Assembly (NCBI GenBank): GCA_050485645.1
Contig: JBJHBT010000005.1
Location: 1,062-65,061 of the forward strand
Direction of reading: 5' to 3'
Origin: Gammaproteobacteria bacterium
GTDB lineage: Bacteria > Pseudomonadota > Gammaproteobacteria > Steroidobacterales > Rariloculaceae
Length of the DNA stretch: 64,000 nt
The notes under the pieces: model-generated
Told to the model about the DNA's origin: nothing
Database searches by the model: none
The model's input: the letters and a program-made list of their open reading frames with translations, nothing else
Part shown: in pieces, positions 12,779 through 48,977 of the stretch
Layout: each line of letters starts with the position of its first letter
Position numbering within the stretch: position 1 is the first letter of the stretch
Position numbers and translations under genes: made by a program

Positions 12779-13315
12779 ATGTGGACCATGCAGTTTTCGC
12801 GTCACGGCGGCCAGCATCAGGGCGGTGCGGCGCTGATCGTTGCGCTGATTTTTCTGCTGGTGATGACCGTGATCGGTACGACCGCGATGCGCGCCGCCAC
12901 GATGCAGGAGCGTATGGCCGGTAACATCCGCGACGTCAACCTCGCGTTCCAGGCGGCGGAAGGCGCATTGCGTGAGGCCGAGGATTTTCTGCTCAACGTT
13001 GCCATGCTGCCAAACTTCAATGACAGCAACGGTTTCTACGAAGTGAATTCGCCGGTAAGACCGGACTGGCGGGCCGATCCGCTGGCTGCCGGTGGCGGTG
13101 GGTTCATCGAGTACGGCGGAACGATCGCTGGCGCCGCCAGGCCGCCGCGCTATTTCATTGAACAGCTCAGCGCCGTGACGGTGCGGCCAGCGGGAACCGA
13201 AACGGAAACCGGAACTCCGCTGGAAGAGATTTTCTACTTTCGTGTTACCGCTGTGGGCTTTGGTGGTGACGAAACCACCTCGGCGGTGCTCAGTACGGTT
13301 TTCAGGAGCCGGTGA
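12779..13315 (+). CDS. pilX: type IV pilus minor pilin PilX
   Basis: GGAALIVALIFLLVMTVIGTTAMRAATMQERMAGN is the PilX-N signature. AGGAG lies 8 nt upstream of ATG 12779. Confidence 0.85.
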   Translation: MWTMQFSRHGGQHQGGAALIVALIFLLVMTVIGTTAMRAATMQERMAGNIRDVNLAFQAAEGALREAEDFLLNVAMLPNFNDSNGFYEVNSPVRPDWRADPLAAGGGGFIEYGGTIAGAARPPRYFIEQLSAVTVRPAGTETETGTPLEEIFYFRVTAVGFGGDETTSAVLSTVFRSR

Positions 13316-16300
13316 TGAACAGGAAGATCGGGATGACTGGCTTGGTTCGCGAATCTGCCCGCCGGCGTGCGTATGTCAAGTGTTCGCGCTTCACACGCAG
13401 GACAGCCGGCGGACTGGGTGCGCTGCTGTACACGCTGTTTGTCTGGCAGGCGGCGAACGCCGAAGTGTCACAGATGCCGTTGTATCTGGGTGGCGGCAAT
13501 GTGCCGGGGAATCTCGTACTCGTGCCGTCCGTCGAGTGGCCGACCATCAACAGCATGGCGAATCTGGGGCCGTACGATCTGAACCGCACTTATCTCGGAT
13601 ACTTCGATCCGAACAAGTGCTACGGCTATCACTACGCCACCAGCGAACCGGAGCGTCACTTTTATCCGGTAGGTTCGGCAGTAGCCCGCCAGTGCGCTGG
13701 CCAGTGGAGCGGCAACTACATGAACTGGGCAGCGACCCAGACCATCGACCCGTTCCGCTCCGTACTGACTGGGGGGCTGAGGGTTCGCGATACCCCCACC
13801 GAGACCTGGCTTGAGAAAGCCCGCCACGATGGACAGGGCGGTACCGGTATTTATCCGAATCGTCGCCTGCCTGCCAGCGATAATAATGCGGCGCTGGTGC
13901 TGGGCGCCACGCCATTCGCGGCTACGAACTGGGTCAGAACCCGCATTCAGGGGCTGGGCAACCGGATGCGATTCGGCGTCGTTTCCAATGATCAGATCAA
14001 CGACGGTGCCACGGCACGGGTTGACTACAACCCCGCCACACACGCCACGCTGGTCGCGGGTCAGGTCTACGAAGTCAGCATACGGGTCCGGGTCTGTGTG
14101 GCCGGCATGCTGGAATCGAATTGCCGTCAGTACTCTCAGGGTTACAAGCCGGAAGGCCTGATTCAGCAGAACGCCCACAATCTTCGTGTCGGCGTGTTCG
14201 GCTATCTCAATGATGGCAACATGCTGCGCGACGGTGGCGTGCTACGGGCACGACAGAAATTCGTCGGCCCGACGCGAATCGTTCCGGGCCAGGGTTCTGT
14301 GGCGAACCCCAATCAGGAATGGAATCCGCTAACCGGCGTTTTCTTCGCCAACCCCGATTCGGCCGATGCCAGCGCGACATCGACGGCACTGGGCATCACG
14401 ATCAACAACAGCGGTGTGCTGAACTATTTGAATCGCTTCGGACAGATGACCAGTGCCAATCACAAGAATTTCGATCCGGTGAGCGAGTTGTACTACACCG
14501 CGCTGCGCTACCTGCGCAACATCGGCAACGTACCTGAATACTCGAATATCCCCGGCAACACCGGGGTGGGGGCGGTGGTGGCCGCTGACGGATTTCCCGT
14601 CATTACGAACTGGGACGACCCCATACAGTATGCCTGCCAGAAGAACGTGATTCTGGGTATCGGTGACGTCTATACGCACCGCGACAAGAATCTTCCCGGC
14701 AATACCGTCTACAGAAACGATGAACCAGCGATGCCAACAGCGGTCGCCAACGACACTGGCGTGAACGTGCGAACCTGGACGAACCGCGTAGGCCAACTTG
14801 AAGGGCTGGGCAACATCGGCGATAGCAACAGCTGGTCTGGCCGAAACAATTCGGCGTACATGGCCGGCCTGGCGTATTTCGCGAATACGACCGACATACG
14901 GCCCGACATGTCCGGCACTCAGACCGTGTCCACGCACTGGGTGGACGTGCTTGAGGCGCAGTCACTGGAGCCGCCGGTCAGGAATCAGTACTACCTGGCC
15001 ACGAAATACGGCGGCTTTCGCCCGCCGGACGATTTTGATCCGCTCACCTATGCCGGTCCAAACCTGCCGGAGGAATGGTGGCATTCCAATGGTCAGACAT
15101 TGACGTCCTTCGGACCGAACGCGTCTCCCACCGGTGTGAATTTTGCCAGACCGGACAACTACTACCTCGCCGGCGAAGCCGATCAGATGATCGCCAGCCT
15201 GAACGAAGCATTTGCGCGGATCGTAGCCGAGTTGCGAAGCTCTGCCTCATCCGTTGCCGCCAACTCCACCCGTGTCGATACGGATACCGCCGTATTCCAG
15301 GCCGCGTTCGACAGCACGCGATGGAGCGGTGAACTTCAGGCGTTCCGCATTTTCCAGGATGGCACGATTGCCGATACCGCATCCTGGAATGCCGCTCAGC
15401 GCCTGGACGACCGCACCGAGAACGACATACTGACCACGCGCCGGATTTTCACCGTGACGCCGCCCACACTGAGCGGTGGCGTGTACAGGTCCACAAGTGG
15501 CGTCAATTTCCAGTGGGGCAGTCTGGCTGCCTCTCAGCAACAGGCATTGCGTCAGCAGCCCGGGGGCGGACCATTGGTCAGCGAAGTCATGGGACAGGAT
15601 CGACTCAACTACCTGCGTGGCTCGCGACAGAACGAGCAGCCCAGCGGTCCGTTCCGTCAGCGCGACAGCCGCCTTGGCGATATCGTCAATTCCGACCCGC
15701 AGTTCATTCATCGTCAGGACTTCGGCTATACGCTGCTGGCGCAGTCGTCGGCGTTCGGCAACACCACGGTCGGGCCGGCCTACCGTGCGTTCCGGGAGTC
15801 CGCTGCCTACCAGAACCGTCCGCCCATGGTTGTGGTCGGTGCGAACGATGGCATGCTGCACGGATTTCACGCGGGGATCGACGGCAATGGTGGCCAGGAG
15901 CTGTTCGCGTTCGTGCCGCATGCCACGTTCGAGAATCTCTACGAACTGACGCTGCAGGACTACGTCCACCGCTATTTCGTGGATGGGACGCCCCGTATCG
16001 CCGACGCCTGGCTGGGTACGACCTTGGGCTGGCGTACGCTCGTGGTTGGCGTGACCGGCGCCGGTGGACGCAGCGTGTTCGCGCTCGACATTACCGATCC
16101 CACGGCGATGACGGCCAGCAATGTCCTGTGGGAGTTCTCGCATCAGAACATGGGCAAGACGCTCGGCCATGCCGTCGTTGCGCCGCTGGCCACGGGCGTC
16201 TTCGGCACCATCGTCACCAGTGGTTACGACACTACGCAGGATGACGGATACATCTGGATCCTGAATCCGGCAACCGGTGCGGTGCTCCACGAGTTCGAGG

Positions 16301-17250
16301 TACCGACCGCGGGTGGCGAGCTGGGTGCGCCGCTGGTGGTAGATCTGGACGGCGACCGCGTGGCCGACCGCATCTATGTGGGTGACACGATGGGCAATCT
16401 CTGGCGCTTCGACATCAGCAACAGCAACATGAACCAGTGGGGGCCACCCAGCGGCCAGAACGGCAATCTTCAGCAAGGCCAGACCAAGTATCCGTTGTTC
16501 GTCGCCCGCGATGCGCTGGGCAACCGTCAGGCCATTACCGGTCCGCTGGCATCCGCCTTCACGGAATCCGGCGAACACGCGATTTTCTTTGGTACCGGCA
16601 GCTTTTATCAGGTCGACGACAACGTCGTGCCCAACGACCCGCTGGTGGATACTTTCTACGGCATCATCGACCGAGGTCAGCGTATCCAGAACCGCTCGAC
16701 GCTGCTTGAGCAGGAGATCATCACCGAGCAGGTTGTCTTCGGCCAGCCGGTAAGGGCCGTCACGGCGAACCCCATCCAGTCGTCACACAGCGGCTGGTAC
16801 CTGGATCTGGTCTGGAAGAACAGCTACGGCGGTCCAGGTCCAGTCGGTGAGCGTGTCGTCTCCCGGCCGCTGGTTCGCGGCGATCGGGTGATATTCCCCA
16901 CACTGATTCCGAATCCTGATCCGTGCTCGTTCGGTGGGGACAGCTGGATCATGGAACTCAATACCTTCTCGGGTGGCCGACTCGCCTACTCCGTGTTCGA
17001 TCTCAACGATGATGGTGAGTTTGATTCCGATGACTGGATTGAAATAGTCGAGGACGGCGAAACGATACGCATCCCGGTGTCGGGCATCAGGCCGGATATC
17101 GGCATAATCCAGACGCCGGCGATCATTACCGGCTTTGGAACGGACGAGTCGGAGATCAAAGTCATCAGTGGCTCATCCGGTGAGCTGATACGGATCTCCG
17201 AGCGCGGTGGTATAGGGATTGGCCGCCAGTCCTGGCGACAGTTGAGGTGA
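13312..17250 (+). CDS. pilY1: type IV pilus tip-associated adhesin / biogenesis factor PilY1
   Basis: 1312 aa, follows pilX with overlapping start/stop. C-terminal PilC/PilY1 beta-propeller features including DLDGDRVADRIYVGDTMGNLWRFD (Ca-binding loop type) and MVVVGANDGMLHGF. Confidence 0.9.
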   Translation: MMNRKIGMTGLVRESARRRAYVKCSRFTRRTAGGLGALLYTLFVWQAANAEVSQMPLYLGGGNVPGNLVLVPSVEWPTINSMANLGPYDLNRTYLGYFDPNKCYGYHYATSEPERHFYPVGSAVARQCAGQWSGNYMNWAATQTIDPFRSVLTGGLRVRDTPTETWLEKARHDGQGGTGIYPNRRLPASDNNAALVLGATPFAATNWVRTRIQGLGNRMRFGVVSNDQINDGATARVDYNPATHATLVAGQVYEVSIRVRVCVAGMLESNCRQYSQGYKPEGLIQQNAHNLRVGVFGYLNDGNMLRDGGVLRARQKFVGPTRIVPGQGSVANPNQEWNPLTGVFFANPDSADASATSTALGITINNSGVLNYLNRFGQMTSANHKNFDPVSELYYTALRYLRNIGNVPEYSNIPGNTGVGAVVAADGFPVITNWDDPIQYACQKNVILGIGDVYTHRDKNLPGNTVYRNDEPAMPTAVANDTGVNVRTWTNRVGQLEGLGNIGDSNSWSGRNNSAYMAGLAYFANTTDIRPDMSGTQTVSTHWVDVLEAQSLEPPVRNQYYLATKYGGFRPPDDFDPLTYAGPNLPEEWWHSNGQTLTSFGPNASPTGVNFARPDNYYLAGEADQMIASLNEAFARIVAELRSSASSVAANSTRVDTDTAVFQAAFDSTRWSGELQAFRIFQDGTIADTASWNAAQRLDDRTENDILTTRRIFTVTPPTLSGGVYRSTSGVNFQWGSLAASQQQALRQQPGGGPLVSEVMGQDRLNYLRGSRQNEQPSGPFRQRDSRLGDIVNSDPQFIHRQDFGYTLLAQSSAFGNTTVGPAYRAFRESAAYQNRPPMVVVGANDGMLHGFHAGIDGNGGQELFAFVPHATFENLYELTLQDYVHRYFVDGTPRIADAWLGTTLGWRTLVVGVTGAGGRSVFALDITDPTAMTASNVLWEFSHQNMGKTLGHAVVAPLATGVFGTIVTSGYDTTQDDGYIWILNPATGAVLHEFEVPTAGGELGAPLVVDLDGDRVADRIYVGDTMGNLWRFDISNSNMNQWGPPSGQNGNLQQGQTKYPLFVARDALGNRQAITGPLASAFTESGEHAIFFGTGSFYQVDDNVVPNDPLVDTFYGIIDRGQRIQNRSTLLEQEIITEQVVFGQPVRAVTANPIQSSHSGWYLDLVWKNSYGGPGPVGERVVSRPLVRGDRVIFPTLIPNPDPCSFGGDSWIMELNTFSGGRLAYSVFDLNDDGEFDSDDWIEIVEDGETIRIPVSGIRPDIGIIQTPAIITGFGTDESEIKVISGSSGELIRISERGGIGIGRQSWRQLR

Positions 17251-45072: not shown

Positions 45073-45840
45073 TCAGAGGTGCGATGGCCGTGTCCGCGGC
45101 CTGATGATGACATGCGTGTCGCCGCTCGGGTTGCCCCGGGGATCGAAGCACCGTTCCATGAAGGTCAGCGTCCGGTCCGGTGCCTGCAGCACCACCGTCG
45201 AGCAGCGTGTGCCGAATGTTTCGTCGCGGATGAACAGCATGTCCTGGTAGCCTTCGTGCGGGGAGCGGCCGCCACGTGACGATCCGGATGACGGGGGCGG
45301 AGCGAGCAGGTCGAGCAGGGCTTCCAGGGGCTCATCCAGTTCCAGCGCGTGGCTCATGCCTGTCCGCGCCGCGGTGATTTTCGGCCATGTGGCATCCAGG
45401 TGGGCGTTGCTGAGCACATGCACTCCGGCGCCCAATGCGGTTGCCGTCCCTCGGTTGCTGGCATACTGCAGCACGTCTCCGTCAAAGAGCAGCAGATTGT
45501 AGGGACCGAACTCGAGCGGGGAGGATTCCAGTTGCCGTGCGAATGCGGCCGCATCCAGGCTGTCACCGAGAAACGCCGGGACCAGGGCGCCGCGCGACCG
45601 CGTGTTGTCACCGGGCGTGTACGCGGCATCGTGAAAATTCGTCACCGCCCCGAATCGGCCGAATTCGTCGACGGCCAGCCAGGTGCCACCGGCCGTCAGG
45701 TCCCGCCCGCCGAAGATTCGCGGTTCACCGCCCCACCACGACGCCGCCAGGGCCGGTCTTGCGTGCCGTTCGTCGCGATTGGCCGCGACCACGAACGGAT
45801 AACGGGTCGAGATGCCGGCCGCGACGGCGATCAGACACAT
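45073..45840 (-). CDS. NRDE family protein (TANGO2/DUF833 homologue, Ntn-hydrolase-like)
   Basis: MCLIAVAAGISTRYPFVVAANRDERHARP is the family-defining N-terminus (Cys2, NRDE). Start trimmed to ATG 45840, which overlaps the upstream ORF's stop by 10 nt. Confidence 0.85.
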   Translation of the reverse strand: MCLIAVAAGISTRYPFVVAANRDERHARPALAASWWGGEPRIFGGRDLTAGGTWLAVDEFGRFGAVTNFHDAAYTPGDNTRSRGALVPAFLGDSLDAAAFARQLESSPLEFGPYNLLLFDGDVLQYASNRGTATALGAGVHVLSNAHLDATWPKITAARTGMSHALELDEPLEALLDLLAPPPSSGSSRGGRSPHEGYQDMLFIRDETFGTRCSTVVLQAPDRTLTFMERCFDPRGNPSGDTHVIIRPRTRPSHL

Positions 45841-46418
45841 GTCAGCGACTTCGCTGGCTTGTCCGTGTCGGTCGATTGCGGCAGCGCGGTGCAGGCCGGG
45901 CAACCCGATCGCGGGATCGCCAGCAGGTCGATCACGTAGCCGCTGGAGCAGACCTCACAGGTGGCCAGACCCAGTTCCTCGCCTTTGCGGATGCTGCACA
46001 ACAGATTCCAGCTCCATTCAAATGTGAGATGCGCCCGCGGGACCAGCAGTGCGTGGGTCTCGAAACATTCGCAGAATCGGTGTCCCAGTTCGATGCTGCC
46101 ATCCAGTTTCGGTCCCGGCGGGGCATGCACGCACAGTAACTCATTGGCCAGCAACAGGTTGGCGAAGACGCCCGATTCCAGTGCACGCGCTGGCGTTCTG
46201 ATCAGTGGCGCCACCTGAGACGGTGATCGGCCACGCTTGCGCCTGACATGGCTGCCCTTCCCGAATTTGAAGTAGGAGCCGTACAGCTTGCGTATCCGGT
46301 CGTCACTGAGGCCGGTCCAGAAGCGGATCGTTCCGGTGCGGGCCTCGTGTCCAATCATGCGCATGGCAAGCTCGAACCGGGCCTGTTCGCTCCGATAGCG
46401 GTTGTCCGTTGCTCTCAT
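45831..46418 (-). CDS. FlhC-like transcriptional regulator subunit (Cys4 zinc site)
   Basis: Whole-length resemblance to FlhC (from memory). QARFELAMRMIGHEAR and LSDDRIRKLY resemble ARDIQLAMELITLGAR and LSRGRLIKLY. C154-x2-C157-x15-C173-x2-C176 resembles the FlhC Cys4 site with a 16-residue spacer. Confidence 0.7.
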   Translation of the reverse strand: MRATDNRYRSEQARFELAMRMIGHEARTGTIRFWTGLSDDRIRKLYGSYFKFGKGSHVRRKRGRSPSQVAPLIRTPARALESGVFANLLLANELLCVHAPPGPKLDGSIELGHRFCECFETHALLVPRAHLTFEWSWNLLCSIRKGEELGLATCEVCSSGYVIDLLAIPRSGCPACTALPQSTDTDKPAKSLTCV

Positions 46419-46467
46419 TATTCTTTTCCCCGCGAATCAGCGATTTTCGAGTACTTAGACTAGAATA

Positions 46468-46499
46468 ACCATAAATGGTATTTTAGGACCATATATGGT
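46468..46499. promoter_or_regulatory. paired operator-like palindromes in AT-rich divergent control region
   Basis: ACCATAAATGGT (46468-46479) and perfect palindrome ACCATATATGGT (46488-46499), centres 20 bp apart. The first overlaps a candidate plus-strand promoter: TTAGAC 46455-46460, 18-nt spacer, TATTTT 46479-46484. Confidence 0.5.
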
Positions 46500-46523
46500 A
46501 ATTCGAGACAAAAAAGAACAATC

Positions 46524-47111
46524 ATGTTATCCACAATCTTCTCTCCGGCCGACCAGCTCAGCCAGATTCACGAACTCAACCGCCTCTTCCTCACCTGCCT
46601 GTACCAGCGTGCCCGAAATGGCGAGGACTGCCTGGGGATGTCCGAGCGTGTCAGGATCCTGCTGGCTGCCGCCGACCCGCAGGCGCTGAACCGGGTGGCG
46701 GAGTTTCCGCGCTCCCTGTTCGACGTCTCGGTGCAGGAGACACTGGACGACGCGAATGCGGGTGCCGGGCAGACGGTCGCTGAACTGAGCTGCAGCGCGT
46801 TGAACATGACCATCATGCACTCCGCCTGGAACCTGAGCCGCACCAGCGGATACTATGCCCGGCTGTTCCTCGGGTTGCGCACCCGCGCGGTGGAAAGGCT
46901 GCGCCGGACCACACTGTATGAACTGCCGCAACTGGCGCTGGCCGATGGTGCGGTGCGCTGCGCGTTTGCCGGTTCCGAGAGACTGTGGCGTGAGCTGCTG
47001 TTCGATGACCGGCCCGAGGTGCGTCAGCGGCTCGGTCTGATCGTCCTGCAACCGCAGCTGGCGCTGGACTCGCACCGGGTGCTTCAGACAGCGCCGCAGT
47101 TCAGTCAGTAG
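46524..47111 (+). CDS. hypothetical protein, possible tandem FlhD-like repeat protein
   Basis: 195 aa. Two segments resemble the FlhD core [34 protein letters not shown] (from memory). They are LGMSERVRILLAAADPQALNRVAEFPRSLF and LGLRTRAVERLRRTTLYELPQLALADGAVRCAF. Similarity judged by eye only. Confidence 0.4.
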   Translation: MLSTIFSPADQLSQIHELNRLFLTCLYQRARNGEDCLGMSERVRILLAAADPQALNRVAEFPRSLFDVSVQETLDDANAGAGQTVAELSCSALNMTIMHSAWNLSRTSGYYARLFLGLRTRAVERLRRTTLYELPQLALADGAVRCAFAGSERLWRELLFDDRPEVRQRLGLIVLQPQLALDSHRVLQTAPQFSQ

Positions 47112-47205: not shown

Positions 47206-48150
47206 ATGAATCCAACGCTGGACGCCCTGGCGATCAAACAGCTGCGCAAGACCTACCCGAACGGGGTCGAGGCGCTGAAGGGAATCGACCTCACAGTCCG
47301 GCAGGGCGACTTTTTCGCGCTGCTGGGTCCCAATGGCGCCGGCAAGACGACGGCGATCGGCATCATCACCTCGCTGGTGAAAAAGACCGCCGGCAGCATC
47401 AACGTGTTCGGCCACGACCTGGATCGACAGCCTGAAATCGTCAAGAGCTGTATCGGCGTCGTGCCCCAGGAAGTCAATCTCAATCTGTTCGAACGCAACG
47501 ATTTCACGCTGATCAACCAGGCCGGCTACTACGGCGTGCCGCGGCGACTCGCGACGCAGCGTGCCGAGAAGTATCTAAAGGCGCTGCACCTGTGGGACAA
47601 GCGGCATGAGTCGGCGCGCACCCTGTCCGGTGGCATGAAACGCCGCCTGATGATTGCGCGTGCCCTGGTCCACGAACCGCGACTGCTGATCCTCGACGAA
47701 CCCACCGCGGGTGTGGATATCGAGATTCGCCGGTCGATGTGGGACCTGATGCGCGAGATCAATGCCTCCGGCGTCACGATCATACTCACGACCCATTACC
47801 TGGAAGAGGCCGAGAGTCTGTGCCGCAATGTCGCCATCATCGACGAGGGTCGCATCATCGAGAACGATGCCATTGCGAACGTGGTGCGCAAACTGCAGCG
47901 CGAGGTGTTCGTGCTCACGCTCGAACAGCGCCTGAGTGAGGCGCCGGTGCTGGACGATTATGTGGTGAGGCTGCGCAATGAACATGAGCTTGAGGTCGAG
48001 GTCGACCGGGGGCAGGGGCTGAACAGGTTGTTCCAGCGGCTGTCCGAGCAGTCGCTGACCGTCGCCAGCATGCGCACCAGGAGCAACCGCCTCGAGGAGC
48101 TGTTCATCCGGCTGGTGGAGAACAAGCCGACGCGGGGGGCGGCCGCATGA
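47206..48150 (+). CDS. ABC transporter ATP-binding protein (ABC-2 exporter type, YadG-like)
   Basis: ORF 47170..48150 trimmed to ATG 47206. GPNGAGKTT, LSGGMKRRLMIARAL, LLILDEPTAGVD. Confidence 0.88.
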   Translation: MNPTLDALAIKQLRKTYPNGVEALKGIDLTVRQGDFFALLGPNGAGKTTAIGIITSLVKKTAGSINVFGHDLDRQPEIVKSCIGVVPQEVNLNLFERNDFTLINQAGYYGVPRRLATQRAEKYLKALHLWDKRHESARTLSGGMKRRLMIARALVHEPRLLILDEPTAGVDIEIRRSMWDLMREINASGVTIILTTHYLEEAESLCRNVAIIDEGRIIENDAIANVVRKLQREVFVLTLEQRLSEAPVLDDYVVRLRNEHELEVEVDRGQGLNRLFQRLSEQSLTVASMRTRSNRLEELFIRLVENKPTRGAAA

Positions 48151-48977
48151 GCGAAGGGCAGACGCAGGTGACGGCGGCCTTCACGCCGGGCGCACGAACG
48201 CCGGACCGCAGGGCGGCGGCTCTGGTGGGCCTGTACACGCTGGTCCGCAAGGAGGTCCGGCGTGTGCTGCGGATCTGGATCCAGACCGTGGTGCCGCCGG
48301 GCATTACGATGACGCTGTATTTCATCATTTTCGGCAGCCTGATCGGTGCGCGCATCGGCGACATGGACGGCGTGCCCTATACGACCTTCATCGCGCCTGG
48401 CCTGATCATGATGGCGGTGATCACGAATTCGTTCGGTAACGTCGTGTCGTCGTTCTTTTCCAGCAAGCTGCAGCTGCACCTGGAGGAGCTGCTGGTTTCG
48501 CCGATGTCGATGAGCAGCATCGTGCTCGGTTTCGTTGTCGGTGGCGTGGTGCGCGGCCTGCTGGTTGCGGCGATGGTGACCGTGGTTGCGCTGTTCTTTA
48601 CCGAGCTGCCGGTTGCGCATCCGCTGATACTGATCGCCGTGCTGATACTGACCGCCACGGTGTTCTCGCTGGCGGGGCTTCTGAACGCGCTGTTCGCGAA
48701 GAAATTCGACGACATCACGATCGTGCCCACCTTCGTGCTCACGCCTTTGACCTATCTGGGCGGCGTATTCTTTTCGATCTCCCTGCTGTCGCCCGTCTGG
48801 CAGGGCATCGCGCGGGCGAACCCCATTCTGTACATGGTGGACGCCTTCCGCTACGGCATGCTGGGTACCTCCAGCATCCCGATCACCACGGCCTTCGCGA
48901 TCATCGTCACCGCGCTGGTGGTGCTGTTCGCGGTGGCGATGTTTCTGCTGAAGCGCGGCTATGGCATTCGCAGTTGA
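48147..48977 (+). CDS. ABC-2 family transporter permease (YadH-like)
   Basis: Six hydrophobic segments, ABC-2 membrane pattern. ATGA overlap with the ATPase gene. Confidence 0.85.
   Translation: MSEGQTQVTAAFTPGARTPDRRAAALVGLYTLVRKEVRRVLRIWIQTVVPPGITMTLYFIIFGSLIGARIGDMDGVPYTTFIAPGLIMMAVITNSFGNVVSSFFSSKLQLHLEELLVSPMSMSSIVLGFVVGGVVRGLLVAAMVTVVALFFTELPVAHPLILIAVLILTATVFSLAGLLNALFAKKFDDITIVPTFVLTPLTYLGGVFFSISLLSPVWQGIARANPILYMVDAFRYGMLGTSSIPITTAFAIIVTALVVLFAVAMFLLKRGYGIRS

Follow-up and report, generated by a model that had tools for sequence, protein, structure and literature searches.

The 64-kb stretch of DNA analysed here (the window; 64,000 nucleotides of the gammaproteobacterial contig JBJHBT010000005.1) contains a 105-bp divergent intergenic control region (46419-46523, assigned to neither strand) that carries a pair of short palindromes, which we describe as candidate operator sites. 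This region separates an open reading frame (ORF) on the minus strand, starting at 46418, from one on the plus strand, starting at 46524: the former is an FlhC-like gene (45831-46418, 195 amino acids) that encodes a putative DNA-binding subunit, and the latter an FlhD-like gene (46524-47111, 195 amino acids) that apparently encodes two tandem FlhD-like domains. The GC content of the spacer is 0.34-0.39 in 100-bp windows versus about 0.6-0.7 in the flanks, in agreement with an earlier reading made from the letters alone (the sequence-only reading), which had called the spacer AT-rich.

Site 1 (ACCATAAATGGT) is located at 46468-46479, with its conserved core CCAYWARTGG at 46469-46478; site 2 (ACCATATATGGT), a perfect palindrome, is located at 46488-46499, with the core CCATATRTGG at 46489-46498. 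The two are 20 bp apart from centre to centre, and site 1 precedes the FlhC-like ATG by 50 bp, a distance shared by most loci of the window's own clade (clade 1). Between them is the inter-site spacer ATTTTAGG (46480-46487), which together with T46479 contains TATTTT, proposed earlier as a -10 element. The spacer limits, both palindromes and their distance are as the sequence-only reading had given them, and so is the third inverted repeat formed by the inner arms, ATGGT-N8-ACCAT, which starts at 46475.

Even with one mismatch allowed, ACCATNNATGGT is found at only two places in the 64 kb, namely sites 1 and 2, so the earlier statement that the motif is absent elsewhere in the window holds for the exact and the one-mismatch forms. 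From its composition the window should contain 0.022 copies of the exact motif; it contains two, within 32 bp. When the spacer was shuffled 200,000 times, a same-arm pair of non-overlapping 5-2-5 palindromes appeared at a frequency of 3.5e-5. Chance is excluded by these two figures. The relaxed core CCAYWWRTGG has a single extra match in the window (CCACAAGTGG, 15491-15500, inside a 1312-aa ORF at 13312-17250), which is probably a chance occurrence.

Conservation of the sites in related loci

We aligned 15 orthologous loci of clade 1, picked by protein similarity alone (64-90% identity; alignment A4), and found the core CCAYWARTGG-N10-CCATATRTGG to be nearly invariant; in full, the aligned loci read CCAYWARTGG-(T/A)nTTTAnG(A/C)-CCATATRTGG. 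Invariant columns number 7 of 12 in site 1, 5 of 8 in the inter-site spacer and 9 of 12 in site 2, compared with 0 of 5 in the adjoining columns on the left and 1 of 12 on the right. Two further elements are conserved, the block TTAGnCTA upstream and an A-run downstream. The half-sites, whose conservation in related intergenic regions had been proposed as a check, are conserved in these 15 loci, and sequence comparison shows strong purifying selection on the sites, on the 20 bp between their centres and on their placement between the two genes. Among more distant orthologues, L017 and L023 (42-44% identity) retain ACCTTTTATGGT-N8-CCCATATATAGT, and L022 retains one perfect site.

A generic, self-complementary pattern, CCAYWWRTGGT-N8-ACCAYWWRTGG, was then used for scanning. 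It gave 0 matches in a viral contig collection, and at least 120 loci in a metagenome collection. Among the matches listed, an FlhC-like gene adjoins the match in 89 of 120, and in 8 more only the FlhD-like gene is seen, because the contig ends (a total of 97); the remaining 23 are mostly unrelated tandem repeats or long hairpins. Locus L103 ends at the match. In L105 the pair (2099-2128) is located just upstream of a DUF6502 gene, beside ligA, and in L070 (994-1023) it is beside a DUF2857 gene; an FlhC-like gene was not detected in either locus. One member of the FlhD-like family has a weak DUF2857 match. Homology of these DUF6502 and DUF2857 proteins to both families was considered and rejected, as only a short TGLS..R.L-like stretch aligned, and not significantly. 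The scan also returned an unrelated, perfect 40-nt palindrome, TTTAGCCATAAGTGGTAAAAGTTTACCACTTATGGCTAAA, in low-GC contigs (L027 at 4505, L038 at 2219, L125, L083 and L128; L027 and L038 are both on PDYJ01000028.1). It adjoins the same ORF each time (N-terminus MIVGRAEEIRQLKRAY) and is a repeated hairpin element.

No further CCAYWWRTGG was found in 550 kb of orthologous loci. We also considered a larger regulon and rejected it, there being no further sites within the window or within these 550 kb of related loci.

Many of the metagenome loci belong to a second clade (clade 2), whose FlhC-like proteins are 37-45% identical to that of the window. The sites in this distant clade read CCATATATGG, the dominant site form there. 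Measured from the FlhC-like ATG, they are at 28, 48, 68 and 88 bp, and between two and four of these positions are occupied, always in a register of about 20 bp. Examples of such arrays and pairs are L090 (431-500), L093 (3210-3278), L136 (205-273) and L077 (4321-4350). The inter-site spacer is GC-rich and of the TCC-N4-GGA type in clade 2, versus TATTTTAGG in the window's clade. Since the spacer has been replaced while the sites were kept, it is the palindromes and their helical phasing that are conserved, and not the -10-like spacer. The spacing of two helical turns pointed out in the sequence-only reading is accordingly a conserved feature, and in the second clade it extends to three or four sites in register; such a register fits cooperative binding on one face of the helix. 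The compared sequences show that the sites travel with the gene pair to below 40% protein identity, and on this comparative evidence the palindromes are a real, selected cis-element tied to that pair.

The two proteins and the neighbouring genes

The FlhC-like product falls below the curated cut-offs of the FlhC families (PF05280: 13.8 bits versus 27, E 0.05; NF009365: 14.4 versus 216, E 0.025), and a distant member of its family, P0275, reaches 26.3 bits over its full length against the Pfam FlhC cut-off of 27. The best PDB matches of the family profile are FlhC chains. An AlphaFold2 model of the product (predicted local distance difference test, pLDDT, 82) was compared with the PDB by Foldseek, and the only significant matches were the FlhC chains 8j56_F, 8j56_C and 2avu_E (E 6e-6 to 3e-5; TM score 0.73, target-normalised), with the next match at E of about 1. 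Four cysteines, C154, C157, C173 and C176, are invariant and align with the CxxC...CxxC zinc site of FlhC (8j56, 2avu). The minus-strand product has, by its predicted structure, an FlhC fold with a Cys4 zinc site, and the FlhC-like label given to it earlier is upheld by a model that matches only FlhC chains in the PDB. C116 and C118 (CxC, in RFCECFE) are also invariant in the window's clade; the distant clade keeps the first Cys only. Members of this family are “hypothetical proteins” of uncultured Gammaproteobacteria (clustering gives more than 1000 groups at 90% identity and, with E <= 1e-3, 807 at 50%), and they have weak helix-turn-helix (HTH) matches in the N-terminus, at residues ~18-67.

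The FlhD-like label of the plus-strand gene is backed by both profile and fold searches. In the family profile (A1), positions 6-99 match FlhD chain 8j56_A (E 1e-3) and positions 91-186 match FlhD chain 1g8e_A (E 3e-3); the top eight Foldseek matches of the AlphaFold2 model (pLDDT 82) are all FlhD, with probabilities of 0.77-0.97 and weak E values of 0.2-1.3. A Pfam hmmscan of the window's FlhD-like protein gave no match, and PF05247 is precomputed on several members of its family. The protein is about twice as long as FlhD, and a profile comparison of one half against the other was not significant (E 0.031, probability 1.6%). From its sequence it looks like a natural tandem fusion of two FlhD domains. 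It also diverges much faster than its partner: in loci where the FlhC-like protein retains 65-73% identity, the FlhD-like protein retains 37-47%. In several MFD metagenome-assembled genome (MAG) contigs (L005, L007, L011 and L015) the FlhD-like frame was recovered in two or three tblastn pieces, and these broken frames are more likely to be assembly frameshifts than pseudogenes.

Both genes have plausible translation signals. The probable ribosome-binding site of the FlhC-like gene is GGGGAAAAG on the minus strand (46423-46431), and a block of the CCTTTCCCC type is conserved in the 15-locus alignment. For the FlhD-like gene, the probable ribosome-binding region is the A-/purine-rich AAAAAAGAA on the plus strand (46510-46518); AAA (A109-A111 of the alignment) is invariant before the ATG, and orthologues show AAAAGAGG or AAAAAGGG.

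Downstream of the FlhC-like gene is a TANGO2-family gene (45073-45840, minus strand; PF05742, E 1.4e-49), whose ATG overlaps the FlhC-like stop codon by 8 nt (ATGTGTCTGA, 45831-45840). The overlap suggests, as far as gene arrangement can, that the two are translationally coupled, and the genes therefore probably form one operon. The TANGO2 gene is directly downstream of the FlhC-like gene in clade-1 loci; in the distant clade it lies 2.5-3 kb farther downstream, with other ORFs between. On the other side, the FlhD-like gene is followed by genes for an ABC-2 exporter ATPase (47206-48150, plus strand; Pfam ABC_tran) and a YadH-type ABC-2 permease (48147-48977, plus strand; NF011648/PRK15066, E 1.6e-113). 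The titles and abstracts of the YadG/YadH literature gave no functional lead. In the 95-nt gap between the FlhD-like and ABC genes we found nothing that resembles a terminator or a promoter, and by their arrangement the ABC genes are possibly co-transcribed with the FlhD-like gene.

This organization is shared. The gene pair is divergent in the window and in related loci wherever both genes could be placed. On the upstream side of the FlhC-like gene, the FlhD-like slot and then the ABC ATPase gene are found in all 22 protein-found genome loci that reach there (L004 was excluded from the count, since its fetched DNA stops before that side), and the permease gene comes next after the ATPase gene wherever the locus DNA extends far enough; the YadH-type assignment holds across loci L001-L023 (NF011648, 57-98% identity). 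The conserved neighbour set consists of the TANGO2 gene and the YadH-type exporter, none of it identified as flagellar or typical of a mobile element; the context is chromosomal, with conserved synteny.

Candidate promoters, regulatory model and alternatives

A consensus scan of the spacer found no canonical sigma-70 promoter and no intrinsic terminator. The plus-strand promoter proposed from the sequence alone, TTAGAC (46455-46460)-18-TATTTT (46479-46484), is present in the letters, but it matches the consensus at only 2/6 and 4/6 positions and was missed by the scan, and its -10 falls in the inter-site spacer that is conserved in the window's clade only; we do not retain it. A sigma-54 reading of TGGTA/TGGCA...GC downstream of site 2 was likewise rejected, since some orthologues lack the -12 GC. 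A better conserved candidate is in the TTAGACTA block (46455-46462), whose reverse complement TAGTCT (46462 to 46457) is a candidate minus-strand -10; in the alignment of this block T52, A54, T58 and A59 are invariant and T53 is nearly so, and of 94 distinct spacers, 93 have a minus-strand TAnnnT at a constant distance from the two sites. From this pattern we infer that TAGTCT may be the -10 element of the FlhC-like gene's promoter. TAGAAT (46461-46466) is a candidate plus-strand -10.

Relative to the minus-strand TAnnnT the sites are at about -18 to -49, with no recognisable -35, so that they appear to hold an activator-type position at the candidate FlhC-like promoter. On the other side, the last site is 24 bp from the FlhD-like start codon in the window and 9-13 bp from it in clade 2. 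With the start codon so near, the FlhD-like transcript must begin within or upstream of the sites, and their position relative to it appears to be a repressive one.

We consider it probable that the palindromes are a phased autoregulatory operator array for a complex of the FlhC-like and FlhD-like proteins, controlling back-to-back divergent promoters. The binder, the sign of regulation and the transcription starts are what we infer from this arrangement. The adjacent proteins are favoured as the binder because the association between sites and gene pair is near-exclusive and persists through deep divergence, and because the FlhC fold comes with weak HTH signals. In such a scheme, an oligomeric complex, built of two dimer-like units or forming a single dyad-symmetric assembly, would bind the two sites from the same helical face and would cover the -35 zone (~-18 to -49) of the leftward promoter, which has the -10-like TAGTCT and lacks a recognisable -35. 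It could then activate leftward transcription by recruiting RNA polymerase, in a geometry like that of FlhD4C2, SetCD and AcaCD, so that the FlhC-like/TANGO2 operon would be under positive feedback. On the rightward transcript, that of the FlhD-like gene and perhaps of the ABC exporter, the bound complex would lie at the start or slightly beyond it, and would repress this transcript. Taken together, this would amount to local autoregulation of five clustered genes, with no large regulon. One complex that activates leftward and represses rightward is the simplest model; repression of both promoters is equally possible.

Several observations weigh against this autoregulatory array. The identity of the binder and the sign of regulation are drawn from adjacency and analogy, and FlhDC-family operators are not short perfect palindromes, nor are the genes of that family divergent, being co-oriented. 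Five of the eight most distant protein-selected orthologues (L016 and L018-L021) are without recognisable sites, and the N-terminal region of the FlhC-like protein is nearly identical in orthologues with and without them; co-variation of protein and operator is not demonstrable, and the comparison of the two groups is uninformative for specificity residues. Similar pairs are found beside genes outside the two families (DUF6502 in L105 and DUF2857 in L070). The clade-2 loci were found through the motif, so what they show is the association and not its prevalence in the clade. Finally, each clade-2 pair is a perfect 30-nt palindrome, and could form an RNA hairpin.

Two of these points bear on who binds the sites. 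As the HTH-like N-terminal region is equally conserved in distant orthologues that have no sites, a transcription factor encoded elsewhere may be the binder, with the FlhC- and FlhD-like proteins as targets; the pairs in L105 and L070 speak for this too. We regard such a factor as unlikely: the paired motif is nearly confined to this spacer (97 of 120 among the matches listed), its association with the gene pair persists below 40% identity, and a multi-target factor would be expected to leave other sites, of which neither the 550 kb of flanks nor the 64-kb window has a copy. Less probable still is that the conservation reflects overlapping divergent core promoter elements only, the palindromes having no factor-binding role, a view that we give very little credence. 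The clade-1 spacer TGGTATTTT does resemble an extended -10, TAGAAT and TAGTCT are -10-like, and TTAGnCTA and the A-run are probably promoter or ribosome-binding elements. But the scan for sigma-70 consensus elements came back empty, conservation is strongest in the CCA/TGG arms, whose bases do not resemble a promoter, clade 2 keeps the palindromes and their spacing without the -10-like spacer, and three or four identical palindromes in register would go unexplained.

A different possibility is that the palindrome pair acts mainly as RNA, as a 5′-leader hairpin controlling translation or stability of the FlhD-like or FlhC-like mRNA. For the window segment the folding energy is -12.3 kcal/mol on either strand (z about -3), and a clade-2 pair forms a 13-bp stem at -21 kcal/mol (z -7.5); two palindromic sites, however, are always pairable by construction. 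The last site of the clade-2 arrays overlaps GGAGGA, the ribosome-binding site of the FlhD-like gene, and the clade has covarying CCAAATATGG...CCATATTTGG pairs, in which the symmetry within sites is broken and the complementarity between sites is kept, although a dyad-symmetric protein complex predicts the same between-site symmetry. For the pair nearest the FlhD-like gene, positions that are not Watson-Crick on the sense strand are of the G-T type in 8 cases and of the C-A type in 0; the pair nearest the FlhC-like gene shows no consistent strand asymmetry, and these statistics ignore phylogeny. In the protein-selected alignment of clade 1, between-site pairing is 76.7% versus 75.8% in the shuffle control (89 of 500 shuffles were as high), covariation is not significant, and three central positions are unpaired in 7, 12 and 15 of the 15 sequences; in the window's clade we therefore rejected the hairpin as unsupported, its pairing and covariation being equal to the shuffle control. 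Moreover, the sequence itself is conserved across clades, beyond complementarity, a 20-bp register of up to four sites is a property of the DNA helix, and Rfam has no family match in the spacer or in the whole window. We judge a mainly RNA role to be distinctly unlikely, and retain the DNA operator array as the preferred reading.

Relation to known regulatory systems

FlhDC-type regulators are master switches for flagella and conjugative elements, and their mode of DNA recognition is poorly defined. In the literature searched we found no description of this gene family or of CCATATATGG as a bacterial operator. By analogy, the locus may be assigned to a system of the FlhDC/SetCD/AcaCD kind. Taking all parts together, we offer a joint reading as a tentative proposal, one that we doubt will hold in its entirety: a chromosomal FlhDC-superfamily branch, so far undescribed, in uncultured Gammaproteobacteria of soil and sediment, in which fused double-FlhD and FlhC-like subunits from divergent genes would read a CArG-like CCATATATGG array in a 20-bp register, with one promoter activated and the other blocked, and in the sister clade maybe a leader hairpin over the ribosome-binding site. 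It would be a self-contained switch for a YadGH-type exporter and a TANGO2-family enzyme, and not for flagella or conjugation.

The locus offers a large unannotated sister family, a short, symmetric and delimited candidate operator, an apparent natural double-FlhD fusion and a minimal target set that looks self-contained, and could serve as a simple model system for how the FlhC/FlhD fold reads DNA. It may also provide a first functional handle on the widely conserved, uncharacterised YadGH-type exporter and the adjacent bacterial TANGO2 genes. Should another factor bind the sites, annotation of these genomes would still gain a well-defined regulatory element.

In E. coli, the FlhD4C2 box consists of two imperfect repeats of ~17 bp with about 10 bp between them, and not of two perfect palindromes of 10-12 bp. 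With FlhD4C2, the flagellar master activator of Enterobacteria and Betaproteobacteria (PDB 2AVU, 8J56), the present system shares a predicted FlhC fold with a matching Cys4 pattern, a partner with an FlhD-like fold, and the adjacency of the two genes. It differs in that its proteins are below the Pfam/NCBIfam thresholds, its genes are divergent whereas flhDC is an operon, its FlhD-like protein is a double-length tandem form, and its conserved neighbours are non-flagellar, with no site near other genes in 550 kb. If the minus-strand TAnnnT is a -10 element, the candidate operator would overlap a poor -35, as in class II-type activation (PMC4344509). Activators of the FlhDC family bind operators that overlap or abut a poor -35, and in the case of SetCD back-to-back boxes serve divergent promoters (PMC4344509; PMC4542580); members of the family recognise unrelated operator motifs (PMC4207636).

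SetCD (of SXT/R391 integrative and conjugative elements) and AcaCD (of IncA/C plasmids) are similar to the system proposed here in being non-flagellar heteromers of the FlhDC family with their own operators near a poor -35, and in having back-to-back boxes that drive divergent promoters within one intergenic region. Theirs are found on mobile elements and control 11-19 promoters; the locus described here is chromosomal, with conserved synteny, and its sites are confined to the regulators' own spacer. Their genes, like flhDC, are co-oriented and transcribed together. Neither divergent genes nor a tandem FlhD is reported for them (PMC4344509; PMC4542580; PMC4207636).

Two further likenesses concern the sites themselves. 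Classical phased repressor operators of the dimer-of-dimers type also have two or more short palindromes on one helical face in a 20-bp register, overlapping the likely transcript start in a divergent autoregulated spacer; the presumed binder here has the FlhC/FlhD fold, and not that of a classical repressor family. That likeness is one of geometry only. The CArG box of eukaryotic MADS-domain factors, CC(A/T)6GG, is fitted literally by CCATATATGG, and the literature found for this string concerns such boxes; no MADS-like protein is present here, and we take this likeness, which is in sequence only, to be a coincidence. Altogether, the locus would depart from the FlhDC kind in five ways: divergent genes, a double FlhD, phased perfect palindromes, a chromosomal context that is neither flagellar nor mobile, and apparently local targets.

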